A DNA stretch of 54,660 bases, taken from Clostridiales bacterium (GTDB taxonomy: Bacteria; Bacillota; Clostridia; Lachnospirales; WRAX01). Below are positions 360-17,640 of this stretch, one piece after another. The DNA lies in contig JAITMQ010000134.1 in NCBI GenBank assembly GCA_031277225.1, forward strand, positions 1 through 54,660, read 5' to 3'. The stretch's first letter is position 1. The number at the start of each line of letters is the position of its first letter. Below the pieces are notes generated by a model. It did not search any database, was not told the origin of the DNA, and worked only from the letters and a program-made list of their open reading frames with translations. The translations under genes were made by a program, and so were the position numbers.

Positions 360-1238
360 TTGCCGACGGCGGAAGAATTAAAGGCAGAATTTCGGCCTTC
401 TGCCTCGACCGTGGAGATTAAGGCCGCGCGGGATGCCGAAATTCGGCGGATTTTTTTGGGTAGGGCGGAAAAATTATTGTTGATTATTGGGCCATGTTCG
501 GCGCATTGTCCGGAACTTACTCTGGAATATGTCGGGCAGCTTGCCGAAGTCGCTTCGGAAGCCGGCGACAAAATTTTAATTGTGCCGAGGGTCTATACGG
601 CCAAGGCGCGCAGCGCGTCCATGGGCTTTATGGGGCTTATCCACGCGGGGGCGGGCGGCCTTAAGGCCGCCCGCAGGTTGCATCTCGATGTCCTCGAACA
701 AACAGGCCTCTCCACCGCCGACGAACTCTTGTACCCCGCGCTTTTGCCTTATTTTAGCGACCTTGTGAGCTATTTTGCCGTGGGCGCGCGTTCGGTGCTA
801 AATCAAGAGCATCGCCTGGTTGCGAGCGGCCTAAATTTGCCCGTGGGCATGAAAAACCCGCTTTGCGGCGATTTGGCAGCCATGCAGGCGGCGATTTGCG
901 CGGCAAAAAGTCCGCAGGAATTTATTTTTCGTGATAATTTCGTGAAAACGGGCGGCAATCCGCTGGCGCATGGGGTTTTGCGCGGCGGGCGCGCCCCGAA
1001 TTACCGCCAAGCCGCCGAGCTTGATATTCCGATTATAATTGACGCAAGCCACGGAAATTCGGGGAAAAACCCGCTGAAACAGCGCGAAGTCATCCTTGAC
1101 GTACTGAAAAACCGCCCAAAAAATCTTAAGGGCTTTATGATAGAAAGCTTTTTCGAGGGCGCGTCCATAACCGACCCCTGCCTAAACTGGCCAAAAACGC
1201 GGGATTTGATTTGTGAAATTGTGGAAGCTCTTGAATGA
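360..1238 (+). CDS. 3-deoxy-7-phosphoheptulonate (DAHP) synthase, compact class I-alpha-like
   Basis: LLLIIGPCSAH (GPCS metal-Cys motif), RVYTAKARS (variant of KPRT), GARSVLNQ, VLRGG, IIDASHGNS, MIESFF and SITDPC all align to E. coli AroG landmarks. Only 292 aa because of internal deletions. TTG start as given by the track. Confidence 0.8.
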   Translation: MPTAEELKAEFRPSASTVEIKAARDAEIRRIFLGRAEKLLLIIGPCSAHCPELTLEYVGQLAEVASEAGDKILIVPRVYTAKARSASMGFMGLIHAGAGGLKAARRLHLDVLEQTGLSTADELLYPALLPYFSDLVSYFAVGARSVLNQEHRLVASGLNLPVGMKNPLCGDLAAMQAAICAAKSPQEFIFRDNFVKTGGNPLAHGVLRGGRAPNYRQAAELDIPIIIDASHGNSGKNPLKQREVILDVLKNRPKNLKGFMIESFFEGASITDPCLNWPKTRDLICEIVEALE

Positions 1239-5400: not shown

Positions 5401-8400
5401 TTCCGTGCCGGGCGACTTCAATTTCGGCGAATTGCCCTTAGATACGCCATTGACTTTTGATGAAATTGAAATTATTCCCGACATGGTGCGGGACGAGGAA
5501 GTCCGCAGGCAACTGGATGAAAGAGCCTATGAAGCCATTCAAGGTGCGCTTGTGGAGCATATTGTTGACGCGCTTGAAGAATTTGGAACGGACTTTGAAT
5601 ATATAAGCGACTGGCTGGAATATGTCGCACCCGGAGATGAGGAAGAGCATGACGACGCAAGAGCCGCCGCCTGGCCCGTCATTCGCAATGGCGTGATGGG
5701 AAGGGGCTGGGACGAGGCCACAATGTCCGCAATTTGGGCAAGTCAGGGCGATTTGGATGTAACCATTGCCCAATGGGCGGCTGTTATTTCGGGCTTTAAT
5801 TGGTGGCCGCATATTAGGCGCGATTGGGAGAGTGTTGCAAGCGATTTTGACCTTACAACCCTTGCATCATCAGACCGTTTTGACGCCATAACCCTAAGCG
5901 ACGCGCGGATTACACAGCCCATCTTAGGGCGGCTGGACATAGAGCGCGAGAATTTTTGGAATTTAATTAGCGTGGACTTTAGAGCGCATCTTGCCGAACA
6001 GCTTGATGATGAAATAATTATGATTTCGGATTGGTTGCATTATATTACGGGCAATCCTGTTTTGGGGCCCGTGCCGCCCGGACTTGCGGCCGCAAGAGAG
6101 GCGGGCTGGGCTTTAATTCGCGCGGGCGAAATAATTGAATACGAGGATTGGGATGACGTGATGTTGCCCATTTGGGCGGATTATACGGAACTTAACGCCA
6201 CGATAGCGGCTTGGACGGCTCTTTTGACGGATTTTGATTTTGCGCCCCAACCCGACACCTCGCCCGTGCTTGGCGATTTAATTGTCAATGGCGACAACGA
6301 GCAGGGCGTGTTTGACCTGCGCCCATTTATCGACCGCATAAGAGATGGCGTGGTTGTGCTGCAAATTCCATATGAAGCCTCTGTGCCGCCCGCCGATTTT
6401 AGGCAGATGTTTAGCTTTGTGGGCTTGGACTATAATTGGACTTATTATGTGATGGTGGATTCCTTTATACAATTTTACGACGGAGATATGCCTATTTTCA
6501 CGGAATATCCGCCGCACGCACGCGATTATTCCGGAAGCAGCGGCGTAGAGGCCTTTTCCACTTGGATTGAAGTTGTGCCGCCCGACGGCGGCGAGATTGT
6601 GCCGCCCGCCCCGCGCGAGCTTCGGGTTGAGGGGGTTACGCTTAACAGCGTAACGACTTCTTGGCTGGACGTGCCGCGCCCGGCAGAGCTTGAGGGCGCG
6701 CGCATTGAATTCGAGATTGTGCGTATGCGGAATATGCAAGTTTCACCCGCATATTTGCTTGATATGCGCGACCAGAGCGTGGCGCAATTTAGAGATGGCA
6801 TGACGGCGGAGGCGAGAGCCGCTTTCGAGGCGGCGGTTCGCACAAATCGTGTTCCCAATGCGGCGGGGCAATTGCAGCTTAGCTTGGTGAATCCTCCGAA
6901 TTTTACGCAGGGTGCGGCTGTGTTAAACAGCTTCCATTTATCGCATCCCGGCGAAGGGCGTGTCGAGCTTGAAAATCTCGGCCTTGTGCCCAATACGTTG
7001 TATTTTTACTATGTGCGTACGGTGTGGATAACCGACAGCGGCTATACCTATTCCAATTGGATGGTTGTTTCGGCCACAACGCAAATTGTTCAGCCGCCTA
7101 TAAACCTTAGAATTATGGACGGCAGGGGCTTTCCTGCGGCCAATATTAATCCCGAAAATCAAATCGTAATCCGTTTTGATGCGCCCGTTGGCGGCCTTGG
7201 TGCAGGAAATATCGCTATTGACCATGGCAACATCTTTGATTTCCGCTTCTCGCTTCGGGAGGAGGCGGGTTCTTGGGGTGCGCCTGTGCCTTTACCTAGT
7301 GTTTTGGGCGGCGGCGGCCAGCATAGGCTTTTGGAGCGACGGCCGTCCGTCGGTATGCCCGGCTATTATGAATTTACCTATGTCATCGGCGGCCTGCGCC
7401 CCGGCACGACATATAGTATTCGTGTGCATACTTTTGACCGCGCAAATAGCGGGGCGGATGTTTTTGCGCATGTTTATTCGGCATGGTCAAATATTGCGTC
7501 GGCAAGGACGGAGGTTGACCAAGATTATATCGATAGAGAGCGCGATAGGGACAATTTGCGCAGATATTTGCGCGATTTGCTTATGGAATTTATGCGCCGC
7601 CCCTATTGGGTTGCGCAAGACCGCCTAAACACCTTTATAACGCTGTATCGGCCGACTATGATAAATTATTTAATAAATGAAAACGGCACAATGATATTCT
7701 TGGCGGATTCCGAGCAAGATATAAATGTGTTCTATTTGCCGCAGGCGTTGTTTTTGCGAATTTGGGACGATGGGCAGGGCTTTATTGTGCAGCGCGGCCA
7801 AATGGAAATTTCTATACCAAATCAGGCCATAAACCGCGTCAATAGCCAGCCCGTGCTTTCTGCAATGACGCGAATTCGCGATGTGCGCGGAATTGAGGAC
7901 TATTATGTCCGTCTGACTTTGGATGTGAGAGAGCATCCCAATCAAATGATTCACGGCGCAACACCCGCGGGTCAGCAGGTTATAATGTCCGTTGAGGCCG
8001 TGGAATCGAACCGCAATGTGCGGGATTTGGACGAAGCCATTTTGCGCCAATTGCAATATTTGGTTGAAACCGACTATTATCTTAATAGAATTGTGGTCGG
8101 CAGAAGCATGACTTTTGCGCAAGAAATTGACAATATGATTGCGCGCGGCATGTCCTATCAATTTATGGTGCGCAGGCTTCATGAAATTGCGGAAATTATT
8201 ACGCAGGAAATGTCGGCATATGTTAATACGCGCCTTCGGGCTTCTGCCGGGCGCGTAACCGCATTTAATTATATAAGCCAGCCTGTTTCAATCGGACTTT
8301 TGAATGTAAATCCATCCGACATGGTTGGAGGATTCCAATTTGCGGGCGGAAATTGGGCGCGGCGCGAGGTGCTGACGCTTGGCACAACAAGGGTTATTCG

Positions 8401-8941
8401 TACATCTGTGCCGGGTTCGTTTGGCTTTAATTCGCAGACCGTTAATTTGCCCGGGCTAAGCAATATTCCGGGGCATGACCGCCTGCAAGGCATTATTATC
8501 AGCAATAATTTGACCGAATTTTTAGGAAGCGGCGCAACTTTTGACCTTAATGCGCCCATAAGCCTAAATGCCGTGCAGGGGATTGTGGCGCGGCTTGGCG
8601 GGGCGACTGCCGGTACAAATGCGCAAAATTGGTTGCGGCAAAGGGGTTATATTGTGCCCGTGCGGGGTGCTGCAGCCCCCGCGCAAACCCAAGAAGCCGT
8701 CTACACCGTCATGGCTCTTTACGAAATGCGCACGAATACAAGGGTTAATGACCTGCGCACCACGAATTTTAACGCCCTTGCGGGCATAAACGGCATTGAC
8801 GCGCGTATGCGCCCCTTTATACAGGCGGCCTTTGAGCTTAATATCTATAACAACCAAAACATGCAGCCCACCGGGACGATGACAACGGGGGATTTCTTGC
8901 GGATGCTGATTGCCCTTGACAGGCGGGTGGGATTGCAATAG
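2444..8941 (+). CDS. giant secreted cell-surface protein (2165 aa) with FN3-like modules and a degenerate C-terminal SLH-like anchor
   Basis: RBS GGAGG. Signal peptide MKYKTKGTIKKIIAAVLAVIMLFGTIPWFAIQALA. FN3-like segments include PPAPRELRVEGVTLNSVTTSWLD...LVPNTLYFYYVRTVW and GLRPGTTYSIRVHTFD. The C-terminal roughly 100 aa are homologous to the C-terminus of the 1431-aa neighbour and resemble SLH (..FIQAAFELNIY...MTTGDFLRMLIAL). Confidence 0.85.
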   Translation: MKYKTKGTIKKIIAAVLAVIMLFGTIPWFAIQALADTPFAFEASFGRGLRPAGPIYDPSPALATDPLPDGQVHLSWPIEADPGTVFRLTFPVGNTTGNSLNHLYVEITGTNTALVRYVPGSTLGAAFSVNIGVPPDASPGSVNFVSLATLESNQPTGANVPPGVFFPDRYYPQPGGFGDPANIDPGNPDFFIDSRHEYFGMTPLFGIQQNNGGGFSFRSGVPGESDYMTAAHSISFLWEGGNFHVTTGGLQQGRIYDFTLTQGSGAIYTAADPGADPNFTPVSGPPLGTQAVFTGFNYAARPIARHRAAPNPRAEDAQASPEDLLFEGRESMGLDGRGDFPIGWTNWDLISTYDPDNPLSHPSNVLIHYNPIGDPGNDFYPAGFTSDTDPPGQENMLEFTIEIPERWIGGTFAPLPLEDTGSDPVIAGARTIFGPGTSLTFGIDDGIGTNYTFIIRNIFAENYEIFRQPDNGRIFVLPAYEGSLDTSARLRTTIILDGNEPFSIPASRLFSESTLEFGGTRPEGIDLMRDGVFRLSGLHTFLSYSVVYMDGDFHVRIEPFVGRNSEGLYRIDFHTPPAPGQTGASVRSDGSDRPVFIPLILAPSAFTQFSVIFEPGGLNLYSQMMAFEATPDRMILTAPAGFNVVPNNPSLSYILDGDGLAEFEIEARWQMGMVGAMRGFFDILSPIPSDPPDPNDPTTVDEIIFTYAIRSRQDQDQPGNVADKIAEVDILFTMHRADDVPTDPETEPAFLAGDITWEIIAIRYGMGAHDCLDPILPPIPPTSPPDYIDCGCFPDVGGIIRATLVETQPINVFVPLRLIADSAEDAEEGRSPLLYEGIYFMSNVLMRVNHDGVADPGRPFAHEMFESSHNNYSYITISRPDLRDFPGPQNLEADVHEGVAGFDMTFGVPAVEIDRFLGRSPFHNAGHDHRVTYRVFLGASRHMREIVGQTPEWRTDNIGMGANDIIFPILGDDGAYGEVPPRTDWNSVPGDFNFGELPLDTPLTFDEIEIIPDMVRDEEVRRQLDERAYEAIQGALVEHIVDALEEFGTDFEYISDWLEYVAPGDEEEHDDARAAAWPVIRNGVMGRGWDEATMSAIWASQGDLDVTIAQWAAVISGFNWWPHIRRDWESVASDFDLTTLASSDRFDAITLSDARITQPILGRLDIERENFWNLISVDFRAHLAEQLDDEIIMISDWLHYITGNPVLGPVPPGLAAAREAGWALIRAGEIIEYEDWDDVMLPIWADYTELNATIAAWTALLTDFDFAPQPDTSPVLGDLIVNGDNEQGVFDLRPFIDRIRDGVVVLQIPYEASVPPADFRQMFSFVGLDYNWTYYVMVDSFIQFYDGDMPIFTEYPPHARDYSGSSGVEAFSTWIEVVPPDGGEIVPPAPRELRVEGVTLNSVTTSWLDVPRPAELEGARIEFEIVRMRNMQVSPAYLLDMRDQSVAQFRDGMTAEARAAFEAAVRTNRVPNAAGQLQLSLVNPPNFTQGAAVLNSFHLSHPGEGRVELENLGLVPNTLYFYYVRTVWITDSGYTYSNWMVVSATTQIVQPPINLRIMDGRGFPAANINPENQIVIRFDAPVGGLGAGNIAIDHGNIFDFRFSLREEAGSWGAPVPLPSVLGGGGQHRLLERRPSVGMPGYYEFTYVIGGLRPGTTYSIRVHTFDRANSGADVFAHVYSAWSNIASARTEVDQDYIDRERDRDNLRRYLRDLLMEFMRRPYWVAQDRLNTFITLYRPTMINYLINENGTMIFLADSEQDINVFYLPQALFLRIWDDGQGFIVQRGQMEISIPNQAINRVNSQPVLSAMTRIRDVRGIEDYYVRLTLDVREHPNQMIHGATPAGQQVIMSVEAVESNRNVRDLDEAILRQLQYLVETDYYLNRIVVGRSMTFAQEIDNMIARGMSYQFMVRRLHEIAEIITQEMSAYVNTRLRASAGRVTAFNYISQPVSIGLLNVNPSDMVGGFQFAGGNWARREVLTLGTTRVIRTSVPGSFGFNSQTVNLPGLSNIPGHDRLQGIIISNNLTEFLGSGATFDLNAPISLNAVQGIVARLGGATAGTNAQNWLRQRGYIVPVRGAAAPAQTQEAVYTVMALYEMRTNTRVNDLRTTNFNALAGINGIDARMRPFIQAAFELNIYNNQNMQPTGTMTTGDFLRMLIALDRRVGLQ

Positions 8942-13973: not shown

Positions 13974-13985
13974 GGGGTTTTGGAT

Positions 13986-14297
13986 ATGCCTTTGGTTAAA
14001 ATAAGAGGTAGGTTTTTTAGTTGGGATGAGGATAAGTATGAAAGCAATATAAAGAAACATGGGGTAAATTTTCACGAGGCCGCCTCGGTTTTTGATGACC
14101 TAAATGCCTTTATGTTTTACGATTCCGATCATTCCGAAGACGAGGATCGCTTTATCGTAATCGGAATAAGTGAAGATGCTCGCTTGCTTATGGTTTGCCA
14201 TTGCTATTGGGAAAAGGTTGAGGTGGCAAGAATAATTTCTGCGAGGAAAGCCACAAAAAATGAAGAAAAAATGTATACGAGGAGGAAATTATTGTGA
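13986..14297 (+). CDS. brnT: BrnT-family (DUF497) ribonuclease toxin
   Basis: FSWDEDKYESNIKKHGVNFHEAASVFDD...DSDHSEDEDRFIVIG...ARIISARKATKNEEKMY is the classic BrnT pattern. ATG 13986 follows AGGGGG. Confidence 0.8.
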   Translation: MPLVKIRGRFFSWDEDKYESNIKKHGVNFHEAASVFDDLNAFMFYDSDHSEDEDRFIVIGISEDARLLMVCHCYWEKVEVARIISARKATKNEEKMYTRRKLL

Positions 14298-14509
14298 AAG
14301 ACGAGTATACAGCGGAGGATTTCGCAAGAGCTGTTAGAAATCCTTATTATGGAAAATTTTTTAAAGATGGGAAGTATACGGTGCAAATTAATTTTGCAGA
14401 CCATATTGAAATTCAGGAAATTGAGCAGGGCACCAGGAGAATTTTGAGTTCTGTAAAAATCCCTAAAGAAGCCCACGCAGAAAGCCATGTGGGACTTGTT
14501 GCAAATTAA
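14294..14509 (+). CDS. brnA: BrnA-like antitoxin
   Basis: GTG start overlaps the brnT stop (GTGA). EDFARAVRNPYYGKFF matches the BrnA N-terminal motif. 71 aa. Confidence 0.6.
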   Translation: MKDEYTAEDFARAVRNPYYGKFFKDGKYTVQINFADHIEIQEIEQGTRRILSSVKIPKEAHAESHVGLVAN

Positions 14510-14512
14510 CAC

Positions 14513-14541
14513 TTGACAAAATTCCCTATTTGGCTTATAAT
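14513..14541 (+). promoter_or_regulatory. consensus sigma-A promoter upstream of speD
   Basis: TTGACA (14513-14518), 17-nt spacer, TATAAT (14536-14541). Confidence 0.7.
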
Positions 14542-14574
14542 CTATTTTCATTATTTAATTTTGAGGTGAGGCGA

Positions 14575-15339
14575 GTGGCGGCTAATAAGCTTAAATTGTA
14601 TGGATTTAACAATTTAACCAAGTCTTTAAGTTTTAATATTTATGACATTTGTTATGCGGGCAGCGCACGCGAACAAAAGGATTATATCGCCTATATTGAC
14701 GAGGAATACAATTCTGACCGCCTTACCAGCATTTTGCTTCATGTAACCGAAATGATTGGCGCGCATGTGCTTTCCGTGTCAAAACAGGATTATGAGCCGC
14801 AGGGCGCGTCGGTAACGATTTTGGTGGCTGAAGAAGAAATTCGCAAAGATGCCGTCGTTGCGCATCTCGACAAAAGCCATGTAACCGTGCATACCTATCC
14901 CGAATTTCACCCCGAAACGTCAATTGCGACTTTTAGGGTGGATATTGACGTGTCAACCTGTGGCAAGATTACGCCGCTGTCGACGCTGGATTATCTTATC
15001 GGAAGTTTTGATTCGGATATTATTACCATGGATTACAGGGTTCGTGGCTTTACGCGGGATGTTGAGGGCAATAAGGTTTTTATGGACGAATCGCTGACGA
15101 GTATACAAAGTTATATAGACAATAAGACATTGGAGCTCTATGATGCCATTGATGTAAATGTTTACCAAAGCAATCTTTTCCATACGAAAATGATGGTTAG
15201 GGATGTTATTTTGCAAGACTATTTGTTTAATTCCGATGTTTATGAGCTTGCGCCGAAAAAGCGCATAGACATCACAAATAATATTCGCAAAGAAATGATT
15301 GAAATTTTTAGCGGGGTTAATGTATTTGGGCAAAATTAG
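14575..15339 (+). CDS. speD: S-adenosylmethionine decarboxylase proenzyme (E. coli-type class 1B)
   Basis: NKLKLYGFNNLTKSLSFNIYDICYA...IAYIDEEYNSDRLT...DYEPQGASVTILVAEE...HLDKSHVTVHTYPE is near-collinear with E. coli SpeD. GTG 14575 follows GAGGTGAGG. Confidence 0.9.
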   Translation: MAANKLKLYGFNNLTKSLSFNIYDICYAGSAREQKDYIAYIDEEYNSDRLTSILLHVTEMIGAHVLSVSKQDYEPQGASVTILVAEEEIRKDAVVAHLDKSHVTVHTYPEFHPETSIATFRVDIDVSTCGKITPLSTLDYLIGSFDSDIITMDYRVRGFTRDVEGNKVFMDESLTSIQSYIDNKTLELYDAIDVNVYQSNLFHTKMMVRDVILQDYLFNSDVYELAPKKRIDITNNIRKEMIEIFSGVNVFGQN

Positions 15340-16777
15340 CAACCAAAATAGAGCGCCTATCATGGAAGCCTTGACGGAATTGGGCCGCAGACGTGTGGTT
15401 CCTTTTGACGTGCCCGGACATAAGCGCGGGCGCGGCAATCCCGATTTGGCGGAATTTTTGGGCGAAAAGGCCATGGCTTTGGATGTAAATTCCATGAAAA
15501 GCCTGGATTTTTTAGGAAATCCCGTTTCGGTTATCAAGGAGGCGGAGGGGCTGGCGGCCGAGGCTTTTGGCGCGCGCGCTGCCTTTTTTATGGTTGGCGG
15601 AACAACTTCGTCGGTGCAGGCCATGGTTATGTCGGCCTGCAAACGCGGCGAAAAAATCCTGCTGCCGCGAAATGTGCATGTTTCCGTCATAACTGCGCTG
15701 ATTTTGTCGGGGGCTGTTCCCTGCTATATAGACCCCGGAATTCACGAGAATTTCGGCATTTCGCTTGGCATGAATTTTGCGGATATTAAGGCCGCCATTG
15801 AGAAAAATCCCGACGCAAAGGCCATTTTGCTGAATAATCCGACATATTACGGAATCTGTTCCGACCTGCGCGCCGCAACCAAGCTGGCGCATGATTACGG
15901 CATGATGGTGCTTGTGGATGAGGCGCATGGCACGCATTTTTCATTTGGCGAAAATCTGCCGCCATCGGGCATGGCGGCGGGGGCGGACATGGCCTCGGTA
16001 AGTATGCATAAATCGGGCGGTTCGCTTACGCAATCTTCGATTTTGCTGCTGGGGCCGCGGCCGGATGCGGCTTCGGTGCGCCAAATTATTAATTTGACGC
16101 AGACCACGTCGGCATCATATCTGCTGCTGTCAAGCCTTGACATTACACGCCGCAACCTGGCTCTAAAGGGCGCGGAAATTTTTGCGCGGGTCTATGAATT
16201 GGCGGCTTATGCCCGCGATGAAATCAATAAAATCGGCGGATTTTACGCCTTTGGCAAGGAGATTATCAATGGCGGCAATATCTTTGATTTTGACGCGACA
16301 AAATTGTCTGTAAACAGCTTGAAAATGGGGCTGGCGGGCATTGAGGTCTATGATATTTTGCGGGATGATTATGACATTCAAATTGAATTTGGCGATATTG
16401 GGAATTTTTTAGCATATATTTCCATTGGCGACACCAAAAAGGACATAGAGCGGCTTTGTTCCGCTCTGGCGGAAATTTTGCGCAAATATCGCAAAGACCC
16501 CAAGGGTATGTTGGACTATGAATATGTGCATCCCGAGGTCGTTTTGCCGCCGCAGACCGCCTTTTACGGCGAAAAGGAGAATTTGCCGCTGGGCGCGGCC
16601 TGCGGGCGAATTGCCGCAGAAATGGCGATTTGCTATCCGCCCGGCATCCCAATTCTGGCCCCCGGCGAAAAAATCACGCCGGCGGCGATTGATTATATTC
16701 GTTATGCGAAGGAGAGGGGCTGTAAATTCACGGGAAGCCGGGATTCGGGGGTTGACAGCATTTTGGTATTAAAATAA
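15320..16777 (+). CDS. speA: PLP-dependent Orn/Lys/Arg decarboxylase (Bacillus SpeA-type arginine decarboxylase family)
   Basis: PFDVPGHKRG, FFMVGGTTSSVQAM and VSMHKSGGSLTQSS (PLP-Lys). The start is ambiguous among 15299, 15320 and 15362. Confidence 0.85.
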   Translation: MYLGKISNQNRAPIMEALTELGRRRVVPFDVPGHKRGRGNPDLAEFLGEKAMALDVNSMKSLDFLGNPVSVIKEAEGLAAEAFGARAAFFMVGGTTSSVQAMVMSACKRGEKILLPRNVHVSVITALILSGAVPCYIDPGIHENFGISLGMNFADIKAAIEKNPDAKAILLNNPTYYGICSDLRAATKLAHDYGMMVLVDEAHGTHFSFGENLPPSGMAAGADMASVSMHKSGGSLTQSSILLLGPRPDAASVRQIINLTQTTSASYLLLSSLDITRRNLALKGAEIFARVYELAAYARDEINKIGGFYAFGKEIINGGNIFDFDATKLSVNSLKMGLAGIEVYDILRDDYDIQIEFGDIGNFLAYISIGDTKKDIERLCSALAEILRKYRKDPKGMLDYEYVHPEVVLPPQTAFYGEKENLPLGAACGRIAAEMAICYPPGIPILAPGEKITPAAIDYIRYAKERGCKFTGSRDSGVDSILVLK

Positions 16778-16780
16778 CCA

Positions 16781-16838
16781 CATTTGGTGGCAAAATGGTT
16801 ACATTTTTACATTTGGTGGCAAAATGGTTACATTTTTG
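16781..16838. repeat. 29-bp perfect tandem direct repeat x2
   Basis: CATTTGGTGGCAAAATGGTTACATTTTT(A/G) at 16781-16809 and 16810-16838. It lies just after the decarboxylase stop and just upstream of promoter P1. Confidence 0.9.
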
Positions 16839-16851
16839 CTTGAAAAAGTGC

Positions 16852-16880
16852 TTGCATAAATTTGTGGGGCGTGGTATAAT
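16852..16880 (+). promoter_or_regulatory. promoter P1 of small-RNA unit 1
   Basis: TTGCAT, 17 nt, TGgTATAAT (extended -10). About 90% identical to P2 at 17154-17182. Confidence 0.65.
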
Positions 16881-16886
16881 AATAAA

Positions 16887-16978
16887 AAAAGAGCAACCGC
16901 AAAGCGGTTGGCCGGAGTTAGAGGGAATTTCAAATTGCAAATACCGCCTACCTTAGCCTGGGGGCGGTTGTTTTTTTG
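16887..16978 (+). ncRNA. candidate small RNA 1 (about 90 nt), putative antisense partner of a small-peptide gene
   Basis: Starts after P1. 5' hairpin CAACCGC-AAA-GCGGTTG, and a 3' GC-rich hairpin (ACCGCC..GGCGGT) followed by a T7 run. No credible ORF. Confidence 0.45.
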
Positions 16979-17037
16979 GTGCGGAAGTATGTTAGCAGAT
17001 TACATATTGCTTGCAAATCGTTGCCGATTGCCAGCAA
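16948..17037 (-). pseudogene. 5'-truncated paralog of the 35-aa hydrophobic peptide gene (status uncertain)
   Basis: The minus-strand frame reads ..VGVLLAIGNDLQAICNLLTYFRTKK.., against MLAVGNDMQAFCNIVNHLVVIFARK in the intact copy. Many differences are synonymous. There is no ATG, only a TTG at 17037. The homologous promoter (TTGCAA-17-TACAAT, 17074-17102) abuts the ORF directly. Confidence 0.4.
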
Positions 17038-17153
17038 TACCCCGACGCGCCATTCGCCGCAGACTTCACAACAATTGTATCACATAAAACTACATTTTGC
17101 AAGCAATTTCGCAAAAGCCGTTTCCGGGCGAGGTGGTTCCTCGAAAAAAGTGC

Positions 17154-17182
17154 TTGCATAAATTTTGGGCATATGCTATAAT
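17154..17182 (+). promoter_or_regulatory. promoter P2 of small-RNA unit 2
   Basis: TTGCAT, 17 nt, TGcTATAAT. Confidence 0.65.
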
Positions 17183-17188
17183 ATAAAA

Positions 17189-17279
17189 AAAGAGCAACCG
17201 CAAAGCGGTTGGCCGGAATAGAATGTTACTAGTTGAAACTAATAACCGCTATCCTTGCCACGGGGGCGGTTATTTTCTT
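17189..17279 (+). ncRNA. candidate small RNA 2 (about 90 nt), 3'-overlapping antisense to the 35-aa peptide mRNA
   Basis: Same 5' box AGAGCAACCGCAAAGCGGTTGGCCGGA as unit 1. The terminator hairpin ATAACCGC..GCGGTTAT (17242-17274) overlaps the stop codon and 3' end of the convergent peptide gene. Confidence 0.45.
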
Positions 17280-17377
17280 GCGAAAATCACGACGAGGTGA
17301 TTGACTATATTGCAAAATGCCTGCATGTCGTTTCCGACCGCGAGCATGACAGCGCAAATCAAATCAAAAATTGTCAT
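17270..17377 (-). CDS. 35-aa hydrophobic peptide, candidate type I toxin
   Basis: RBS TAGGAGGTGAGG lies 4 nt before the ATG. Translation: MTIFDLICAVMLAVGNDMQAFCNIVNHLVVIFARK. The stop is embedded in the shared terminator hairpin. Not in the track (under 60 aa). Confidence 0.5.
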   Translation of the reverse strand: MTIFDLICAVMLAVGNDMQAFCNIVNHLVVIFARK

Positions 17378-17500
17378 GAGCCTCACCTCCTAACGGGGGT
17401 CGGCCAAACCGCCTTGCTTTCGGTTGCTCTTAGGATTCGGGCGGGGAGTTCGTTGTTGCATTTTGCCGGCATTTCTCGGAATTGCCCTTATCCCAAAGAC

Positions 17501-17529
17501 ATCATACCACAAGTTTCAACATTTTGCAA
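17501..17529 (-). promoter_or_regulatory. promoter of the peptide mRNA (about 115-nt leader to the ATG at 17377)
   Basis: On the minus strand: TTGCAA, 17 nt, TGgTATGAT. The leader contains AAGAGCAACCGAAAGCAAGGCGGTTTGGCCGAC, an inverted copy of the sRNA 5' box. Confidence 0.55.
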
Positions 17530-17550
17530 GCAATTTCACAAAAAAATGGC

Positions 17551-17640
17551 GGGGGGATTCCCGCTTTCGCGGGAATGACGAGTTTTCGCGGGAATGACGG
17601 GTTCATTCCCGCCGGGGAATTCCGCCGGGGAATTTTTCTT
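17551..17640. repeat. REP/MITE-like palindromic units (cluster 1)
   Basis: GGGGGGATTCCCGCTTTCGCGGGAATGACG, then a partial unit, then ATTCCCGCCGGGGAAT / ATTCCGCCGGGGAAT variants. Confidence 0.85.

Follow-up and report, generated by a model that had tools for sequence, protein, structure and literature searches.

What occupies the 908-bp gap between an Orn/Lys/Arg-decarboxylase gene (15299..16777, plus strand) and the parA/parB genes (17686.., plus strand) of an uncultured clostridial genome? The stretch analyzed here, which we call the window, is a 54.7-kb contig (54,660 nucleotides, nt) of a metagenome-assembled genome (MAG), and the named entries among the nearest relatives of its ParA protein are Defluviitaleaceae MAGs. 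The gap holds two adjacent units, in each of which a predicted small RNA (sRNA) of the plus strand faces a minus-strand gene for a small hydrophobic peptide; in one of the units the peptide gene has decayed. Going by sequence, predicted folds and analogy, we consider it reasonably probable that the two are type I toxin-antitoxin-like modules, arranged in tandem and built on the bsrG/SR4 design. They would represent a rare new family within a kind of system already known, which an earlier inspection of the letters alone (below, the sequence-only reading) had interpreted correctly in outline. Our comparison covers three loci with five units, four of them intact: units 1 and 2 of the window, units A and B of a metagenome contig (L053) and the single unit of a phage contig (L054).

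Unit 2 carries the intact peptide gene of the window, within an open reading frame (ORF) of 35 amino acids (aa) preceded by a Shine-Dalgarno (SD) sequence, and its features are as follows.

17154..17182, plus strand: sRNA promoter, read from the sequence (TTGCAT, 17-nt spacer, TGcTATAAT).
17189..17279, plus strand: predicted sRNA 2, about 91 nt, the putative antitoxin (5' hairpin box, 17191-17217; variable middle; terminator hairpin, 17245-17272).
17501..17529, minus strand: mRNA promoter (TTGCAA, 17-nt spacer, TGtgGTATGAT), with a -10 element weaker than that of the sRNA promoter.
17432..17494, minus strand: 5'-terminal hairpin of the mRNA (GGGAUAAGGGC...GCCCGAAUCC), predicted by folding; kept in the L053 units, none in L054.
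17401..17431, minus strand: leader box AAGAGCAACCGAAAGCAAGGCGGTTTGGCCG, a diverged third copy of the box (17429..17401) in the same sense as the sRNA 5' box.
17386..17399, minus strand: small hairpin, predicted by folding, in which the SD GGAGG (17390..17386) pairs with an anti-SD CCCCC (17399..17395).
17270..17377, minus strand: putative toxin ORF of 35 aa, MTIFDLICAVMLAVGNDMQAFCNIVNHLVVIFARK, with a grand average of hydropathy (GRAVY) of 1.23 and GGAGG 8 nt upstream of its ATG.
17185..17217, minus strand: 3' box of the mRNA, reading CCGGCCAACCGCTTTGCGGTTGCTCTTTTTTT, from the terminator scan; the predicted 3' strand of a 5'-3' helix.

The near-identical plus-strand promoters (TTGCAT-17-TGnTATAAT) that the sequence-only reading had picked out are both present, at 16852-16880 and 17154-17182, and the RNAs of about 90 nt that it placed behind them, with a 5' box, a GC hairpin and a T-run, come out at a predicted 91 nt each. 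Across the five units, the hexamers and the 17-nt spacing of this promoter are essentially invariant (the -35 element is TTGCGC in L054), and the spacer sequence varies. All five sRNAs (75 to 96 nt) have a hairpin at the 5' end and a terminator, separated by an unpaired middle of low conservation, and the predicted antisense RNA keeps its own promoter together with these two hairpins in 5/5 units. The box itself, AGAGCAACCGCAAAGCGGTTGGCCGGA (27 nt), has exactly two plus-strand copies (16890 and 17191), for a chance expectation of zero, and 35 nt are identical between both window units at the sRNA box/promoter region. A covariance model built from the five sRNAs found nothing beyond the known copies, either in the window or among 13 searched loci.

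Might the box be the remnant of a tRNA or of a repeat element, such as an integration site or a sequence like a repetitive extragenic palindrome (REP-like), with the rest being AT-rich sequence that resembles promoters by chance? A relaxed box pattern did match many phage tRNA-Arg(TCT) and tRNA-Asn genes (viral loci L025-L040), the match spanning the 3' strand of the D-arm, the anticodon stem and the variable loop (AGAGCA-ACCGC...GCGGT-TGGCCG), and GC-rich REP-like palindromes flank the module at 17549-17640. However, the window contains no tRNA, the TGGCCG flank is not conserved in L053, and the loop is of 3 nt. It is, moreover, the whole unit of 300 to 400 nt, not the box alone, that is conserved in three unrelated contexts. 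We regard such an origin as extremely improbable; it is effectively refuted by the full-unit conservation in L053 and L054, and we judge the tRNA likeness to be coincidental.

On the minus strand, the TTGCAA promoters with an extended -10 element were likewise found where the sequence-only reading had them, at 17102..17074 and 17529..17501, and this convergent, weaker promoter is kept in all five units. From the -10 element of unit 2, transcription is expected to start at about 17494. The 35-aa ORF, described earlier as having a perfect ribosome-binding site and a stop inside the hairpin, is confirmed at 17377..17270, its TAA lying in the foot of the terminator hairpin. The opposing transcripts had also been proposed to meet at this shared GC hairpin, and the extent of that overlap needs correcting. 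The hairpin has no good U-run on the minus strand, and in ORFs of the unit 1 type the reading frame passes through it, whereas the minus-strand box hairpin CAACCGCTTTGCGGTTG, together with the CTCTTTTTTT behind it, is picked up as an intrinsic terminator by a terminator scan. Since the box is terminator-like on this strand and the shared hairpin is without a good U-run, the mRNA most likely overlaps the whole sRNA and not the hairpin only. In our model, it probably runs to about 17185 (17494..17185, about 310 nt). Complementarity to the unit 2 mRNA, within its final ~90 nt, extends over the full length of sRNA 2.

An exhaustive phmmer search of 1.84 billion representative proteins with the 35-aa peptide returned one homolog, P0122 (MTMYDLIIAIVLAVGADCSALYHIVNYPVIVFARK), which has the same length as the window peptide and 57% identity to it (E = 3.5e-4). 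The metagenome contig of P0122, L053, has the tandem pair too, with its order unchanged and both units intact, between a DUF2161 gene and ispG; the peptide of its unit B has 44 aa (MAIYDMLTAVLLAIGNDLQAIINLLQSLSIVSINKQPPTDEVGG). A scan of viral contigs with an L053-compatible box led to L054, a contig of phage structural genes (tail sheath, major head, tail assembly chaperone) with a single unit (905-1245), whose peptide of 36 aa, MSVFEIIMIIFVAMTFVVTMIELMIYINDMISRKRK, is a textbook hydrophobic helix with a basic tail. In L054, the module sits as a self-contained insert on the late-gene strand, with a virion structural gene on one side and the tail assembly chaperone gene on the other. The three genomic contexts are unrelated to each other, and L053 and the window share no homology apart from the module. 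Type I toxin-antitoxin loci are often missed by annotation and have been studied mainly in Bacillus, Staphylococcus, Enterococcus, Clostridioides difficile and enterobacteria. The statement of the sequence-only reading that nothing of this module appears in annotation was mistaken, as the 35-aa ORF is called by JGI as a hypothetical protein (P0121); the ORFs of L053 A and L053 B carry the same label.

The comparison of these loci argues that the peptide frame is coding. It is the sole frame without stops across window unit 2, L053 A and L053 B, and the ORF is open, with a strong SD, in all four intact units, where it encodes hydrophobic peptides of 35 to 44 aa, within the size (<60 aa) expected of type I toxins. 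Between window unit 2 and L053 A, 30% of the nucleotides differ over 35 codons with zero indels, and indels are found in the non-coding leader. The ratio of nonsynonymous to synonymous substitution rates (dN/dS) of the ORF is 0.4-0.5. From locus to locus, the ORF, its SD, the two promoters, the two hairpins and the leader box are preserved in the same register. The sequence-only reading had named loss of the peptide frame in homologous loci as a ground for refutation, and in both L053 and L054 the frame is kept. With respect to hydrophobicity, three of the peptides have GRAVY values of 1.23, 1.24 and 1.20, L053 B has 0.65, and BsrG has 1.0; the best 19-residue Kyte-Doolittle windows score 1.47 (window peptide, borderline), 2.04, 1.62 and 2.65. 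A 107-aa plus-strand ORF (17255..17578), antisense to the peptide gene and its leader, was rejected as an artefact, the equivalent frame having stops in L053.

The predicted fold of the mRNA is also common to the loci. The 310-nt unit 2 mRNA folds with a closing, bulged 5'-3' helix of about 25 bp, its SD paired with CCCCC and its AUG paired as well (z = -4.9). The leader box is complementary to the 3' box of the same mRNA (predicted duplex, -45 kcal/mol), and the anti-SD/SD hairpin stacks on the 5'-3' helix. The inverted copy of the sRNA box that had been noticed upstream of the SD is thus present, and it is explained as the 5' strand of a helix resembling P1 of bsrG. All four intact mRNAs fold independently to one plan, consisting of the 5'-3' helix, the anti-SD/SD hairpin, a paired start region and a stop-codon hairpin; the start region pairs with the 3' part of the ORF, and the window and L053 mRNAs add a 5' hairpin. 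In the window mRNA and both L053 mRNAs, the predicted unpaired probability is 0.01-0.22 for the SD and 0.00-0.01 for the AUG.

The RNAalifold consensus of the four-sequence alignment retains these helices. In it, 91.8% of cells are paired, compared with 34-51% after the partners were shifted one to three columns, and 12 pairs are changed on both sides, compared with 2-4 in the slid controls; 0/500 shuffles reach the observed pairing values. The anti-SD/SD hairpin is kept in 4/4 intact mRNAs with wobble or compensatory changes. In the 5'-3' helix, a change of the leader from AACC to AATC is matched at the 3' end by GGTT to GATT, and a bulge of 4-5 nt is positionally conserved. We take this covariation as supportive, not conclusive.

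Unit 1 retains the same layout without an intact peptide gene.

16852..16880, plus strand: sRNA promoter, read from the sequence (TTGCAT, 17-nt spacer, TGgTATAAT).
16887..16977, plus strand: predicted sRNA 1, about 91 nt, from promoter, 5' hairpin and terminator predictions (5' hairpin box, 16890-16916; variable unpaired middle; terminator hairpin, 16943-16970, then a T-run).
16948..17037, minus strand: remnant of the toxin gene (..LLAIGNDLQAICNLLTYFRTKK..), from alignment to unit 2 and L053 B.
17074..17102, minus strand: mRNA promoter (TTGCAA, 17-nt spacer, TGtgATACAAT), kept despite the decay of the ORF.

Under the covariance model, sRNA 1 scores 88.7 bits, its own sequence being among those on which the model was trained. 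Alignment to unit 2 indicates that about 117 nt are gone from unit 1, comprising the leader box, the SD, the ATG and the first ~10 codons. The sequence-only reading had called unit 1 a 5'-deleted paralog, and to this extent it was right; it missed a further 8-nt frameshifting deletion near the 3' end of the ORF, which, on top of the 5' deletion, makes the toxin gene of unit 1 a pseudogene. The intact counterpart of the remnant is the 44-aa ORF of L053 unit B, with which it shares 78% nucleotide identity at a dN/dS of 0.38 over 17 codons. The differences between units 1 and 2, previously described as largely synonymous, do show this codon-position bias (7, 1 and 10 at positions 1, 2 and 3), and as judged from the sequences the likeness of the two is older than the decay of unit 1. 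On the same evidence, unit 1 is a decayed copy in which the toxin gene has been destroyed and the sRNA and both promoters have been kept.

An sRNA that outlives its ORF invites another hypothesis. In this scenario, the plus-strand RNAs are trans-acting sRNAs with distant targets, and the minus-strand ORF and leader box are incidental or leftovers of duplication. Consistent with it, the box and the promoter are the most conserved pieces of the module, as the 35 identical nt of the window units illustrate, and the hairpin is better formed on the sRNA strand. We nevertheless consider it very unlikely, since conservation across loci extends to the ORF with its SD, ATG, length and frame and is lowest in the sRNA middle, where a seed usually lies, and the leader box keeps its 4-5-nt bulge and co-varies with the 3' box.

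The reading that we favor, a pair of modules of the bsrG/SR4 design, draws on a system of known structure. In bsrG mRNA, helix P1 joins nt 1-35 to nt 232-262, and the stem that follows contains the SD. The overlap of SR4 with the 3' part of bsrG is 123 nt long, and its binding frees nt 1-33 and lengthens the SD helix (PMC3834814). RNase III cleavage and reinforced SD sequestration have both been demonstrated in experiments on SR4 and bsrG. The module shares with bsrG/SR4 (B. subtilis prophage SPbeta; RF01412) a toxin mRNA and an antisense RNA that are convergent and overlap at their 3' ends, as well as an mRNA of ~300 nt closed by a long 5'-3' helix, which is predicted here for 4/4 intact mRNAs and has been probed in bsrG. 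Directly after the 5' strand of this helix comes an SD hairpin with the motif UCCCCU-(A/G)UGAA-AGGGGUG, which in SPbeta (L059) reads UCCCCU-AUGAA-AGGGGUG. The stop codon sits at a stem-loop, and the antitoxin is complementary to the 3' strand of the helix, so that its binding would free the 5' strand. The peptides of 35-38 aa start with M-[TS]-x-[YF]-[ED] (MTVYE in BsrG; MTMYD, MSVFE and MTIFD here), and, in L054, the location is also that of a phage or prophage.

There are differences as well. In the present module, the 3' strand of the helix coincides with the terminator-like box and with the complement of the sRNA 5' hairpin, whereas bsrG has a separate terminator, SL4, after P1. On the mRNA strand of L054, a separate, strong-looking GC-rich hairpin with a T-run (about 941..914) follows the 3' box, and with this extra terminator the layout there is still closer to that of bsrG (P1, then terminator). 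The sRNAs, at 75-96 nt, are shorter than SR4 (183 nt) and complementary to the mRNA over (nearly) their whole predicted length, and the host is an uncultured Clostridia MAG and not a member of the Bacillales. Against the Rfam BsrG model (RF01412; gathering threshold, 55), the L054 mRNA reaches 24.6 bits and the mRNAs of the two L053 units 16.5 and 16.7, compared with 210 for the SPbeta control. The L054 match is full-length and on the correct strand, with E values of 5e-4 when 381 nt are searched and 0.013 when 10.6 kb are. The BLASTP alignment of the L054 peptide to BsrG covers the N terminus, the likeness being limited to the first 7-9 residues. As the design is the same and the module falls outside both RF01412 and the TxpA/BsrG protein family, we describe it as bsrG/SR4-like in its working, formal membership having failed. 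It may be a remote relative.

Several observations weigh against the assignment to type I toxin-antitoxin modules of this design. The window unit gives no match to RF01412 even at E<=10, and the peptides are not significantly similar to BsrG (BLASTP E values of 0.52 and 0.037, with 9 residues aligned in each case; hhalign probability, 2.6%). The hydropathy maximum of the window peptide, 1.47, is below the usual transmembrane cut-off of 1.6, and the peptide has polar residues at N16, D17, Q19, N23, N26 and H27 and only two C-terminal basic residues; the acidic tail of L053 B is atypical of type I toxins. The covariation statistics are thin, coming from three loci and four intact units, two of which lie on one contig, and the structure tested was derived from the very alignment used for the test. 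In L053 and L054, the box hairpin has a C-A mismatch on the mRNA strand, where the sRNA strand has a G-U pair. A C-to-U change that leaves G-U on the sRNA and C-A on the mRNA argues that the hairpin itself is selected on the sRNA strand, and the mismatch makes the mRNA 'terminator' weaker and the mRNA 3' end uncertain in these two loci; conservation of the box could be driven by the sRNA alone. Lastly, masking the region bound by the sRNA gave no consistent predicted change in SD accessibility, and for this reason a translational arm of the SR4 type is not claimed.

The properties of the peptides bear directly on whether they are toxins at all. They could instead be small membrane or accessory peptides under cis-antisense control with no killing or addiction function, for example a phage moron for superinfection exclusion or membrane modulation, of which the chromosomal copies would be domesticated or remnant. 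The autonomous position of the L054 unit between phage tail genes is in keeping with this, as are the less transmembrane-like character of the window and L053 peptides relative to classic toxins, the variation among tails (ARK, acidic, RKRK) and the lack of any toxin family matching the peptides. On the other hand, translational locking, a stronger antisense promoter, tandem paralogs and the loss of an ORF with its sRNA kept are a signature of toxic genes, and the design matches that of bsrG/SR4, whose peptide is toxic (PMC3834814; PMC6562991). Weighing these points, we think it rather unlikely, if deserving of attention, that the peptides are not toxins.

We propose the following model for a toxin-antitoxin module of this kind. 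A moderate extended -10 promoter would drive an mRNA of ~310 nt on the minus strand for a hydrophobic peptide of 35 aa. This mRNA would be made in a locked and probably stable form, with the leader and the 3' box joined in a helix, the SD held in the anti-SD hairpin and the AUG paired to the 3' part of the ORF. A perfect TGnTATAAT promoter would drive the ~91-nt sRNA, more strongly promoted and fully complementary to the 3' region of the mRNA. The unstructured, unit-specific middle of the sRNA would nucleate on the unpaired spacer of the mRNA 3' untranslated region (UTR), and pairing would then spread into the box and displace the leader. Predicted duplex energies are -36 to -45 kcal/mol for the leader with the 3' box and -55 to -63 kcal/mol for the sRNA with the 3' box, the latter duplex being ~15-20 kcal/mol more stable. 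The perfect duplex of 75-95 bp that results would be a substrate of RNase III, as in bsrG/SR4. Of the two arms of the SR4 mechanism, degradation is the one that we claim, as likely by analogy. What the sequences show is conservation of the elements in three loci, a preserved frame and covarying structure; transcription, toxicity or membrane action of the peptide and the involvement of RNase III are all inferred.

This opens the way for a more tentative proposal regarding the box. A single element of ~27 nt might do three jobs, serving as the terminator-like 3' end of the mRNA, as the docking site of the leader (the lock) and as the 5' hairpin of the antitoxin, in which case the 5' end of the antitoxin would be a mimic of the leader competing for the mRNA 3' end. 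The box is identical between paralogous units of one genome and the sRNA middles have diverged, so tandem units could share unlocking and keep unit-specific recognition, and the orphan sRNA of unit 1 might act in trans on the toxin mRNA of its neighbor. We think this possible but doubtful as a whole.

Other type I systems help to place the module. The likeness to txpA/RatA and bsrG/SR4 drawn by the sequence-only reading is supported by the conservation of frame, elements and fold in L053 and L054. TxpA has 59 aa and RatA is of ~220 nt. With txpA/RatA and the adjacent bsrH/as-bsrH of the B. subtilis skin element, the module has in common convergent antisense control with overlapping 3' ends and a small hydrophobic toxin. 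The skin element, too, has two paralogous type I modules next to each other, and tandem modules and prophage locations are known in Bacillus (PMC6563280).

The predicted inertness of the primary transcript, by pairing of its 5' and 3' ends and sequestration of the SD, recalls hok/Sok and aapA1/IsoA1, which are unrelated to the module in sequence. There, the antisense RNA acts on the 5' leader or the translation-initiation region, and activation needs 3' processing. In contrast to hok/Sok, the complementarity of the predicted sRNA of the present module is confined to the final 75-95 nt of the mRNA, that is, to the 3' UTR and the last few codons. The par system (fst/RNA II) of Enterococcus pAD1 shares with the module convergent transcription to a common terminator region and a repeat common to both RNAs. 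The repeats of par are direct DNA repeats, so both RNAs are complementary at their 5' ends. Unlike in par, the box repeat is inverted here, and the sRNA box and the leader box, being of the same sense, cannot pair with each other.

Current understanding is not challenged by the module, which appears to reuse the logic of bsrG/SR4, a 5'-3' lock opened by an antitoxin that overlaps the 3' end, and provides natural variants for testing it. These include a toxin that has decayed with its antitoxin retained and a phage-borne copy open to direct assay. The family is very sparsely sampled, with three called proteins among billions and one uncalled ORF in a phage contig, and its hosts are an uncultured Clostridia lineage and one of its phages.

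Word-seeded peptide searches and profile searches returned only the three peptides called by JGI, and the peptides match no family in Pfam or NCBIfam. Capped scans for the box as an exact or gapped pattern listed 17 matches in genome_contigs and 9 in metagenome_contigs, each one an isolated chance match within coding sequence from an unrelated phylum; these patterns were too specific to the window, whose AACC is AATC in L053. Other pattern scans of viral contigs yielded, apart from L054, chance matches only. No match came from BLAST searches of GenBank phages, with the modules and the L054 peptide as queries, or of PLSDB plasmids, with the window region as query. Rfam reported nothing at gathering threshold in the window, the weak matches being terminator-like noise. 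The nearest relatives by ParA (79-87% identity; L018-L024 and L050-L052) are without the module upstream of parA.

The surroundings of the module in the window have several features of their own. At 16780-16837, between the stop codon of the decarboxylase gene and the sRNA promoter of unit 1, lies a perfect direct repeat of 29 nt in two tandem copies (ACATTTGGTGGCAAAATGGTTACATTTTT), without counterpart in L053 and L054. It holds a small hairpin with a terminator-like score on the minus strand (16791..16777), and it could be a far terminator for minus-strand read-through or a binding site for a regulator. The REP-like palindromes at 17549-17640, a cluster of which sits between the module and the parA promoter, recur in intergenic positions at about 19415, 20414, 21749, 30495 and 30648, with the cores CCCGCGAAAGCGGGAAT and CGCGGGAATGAC, and give rise to spurious ORFs (..IPAKAGIP.., ..SRFRGNDG..).

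About 2.5 kb upstream of the module, at 13980-14509, a BrnT-type toxin gene (PF04365, E = 1e-27) and a small partner ORF make up a type II toxin-antitoxin pair, and a BrnT/BrnA pair is also found upstream of parA in L018-L020. In a relative with 85% ParA identity (L021), a different small gene of 42 aa (MRKKRINIASAYKLAKLCKYVIDAIKSLVDLFFKPKKANTLE) lies just upstream of parA (5687-5815); it comes with a strong SD, an extended -10 promoter of its own and a terminator, and is non-homologous to the 35-aa peptide of the window. The window has polyamine genes, encoding a speD-like S-adenosylmethionine decarboxylase and the Orn/Lys/Arg decarboxylase, upstream of parAB (14530-16777), whereas L021 has a spermidine synthase gene downstream of parB (7682-8530), which indicates that the origin-proximal region has been rearranged between close relatives.

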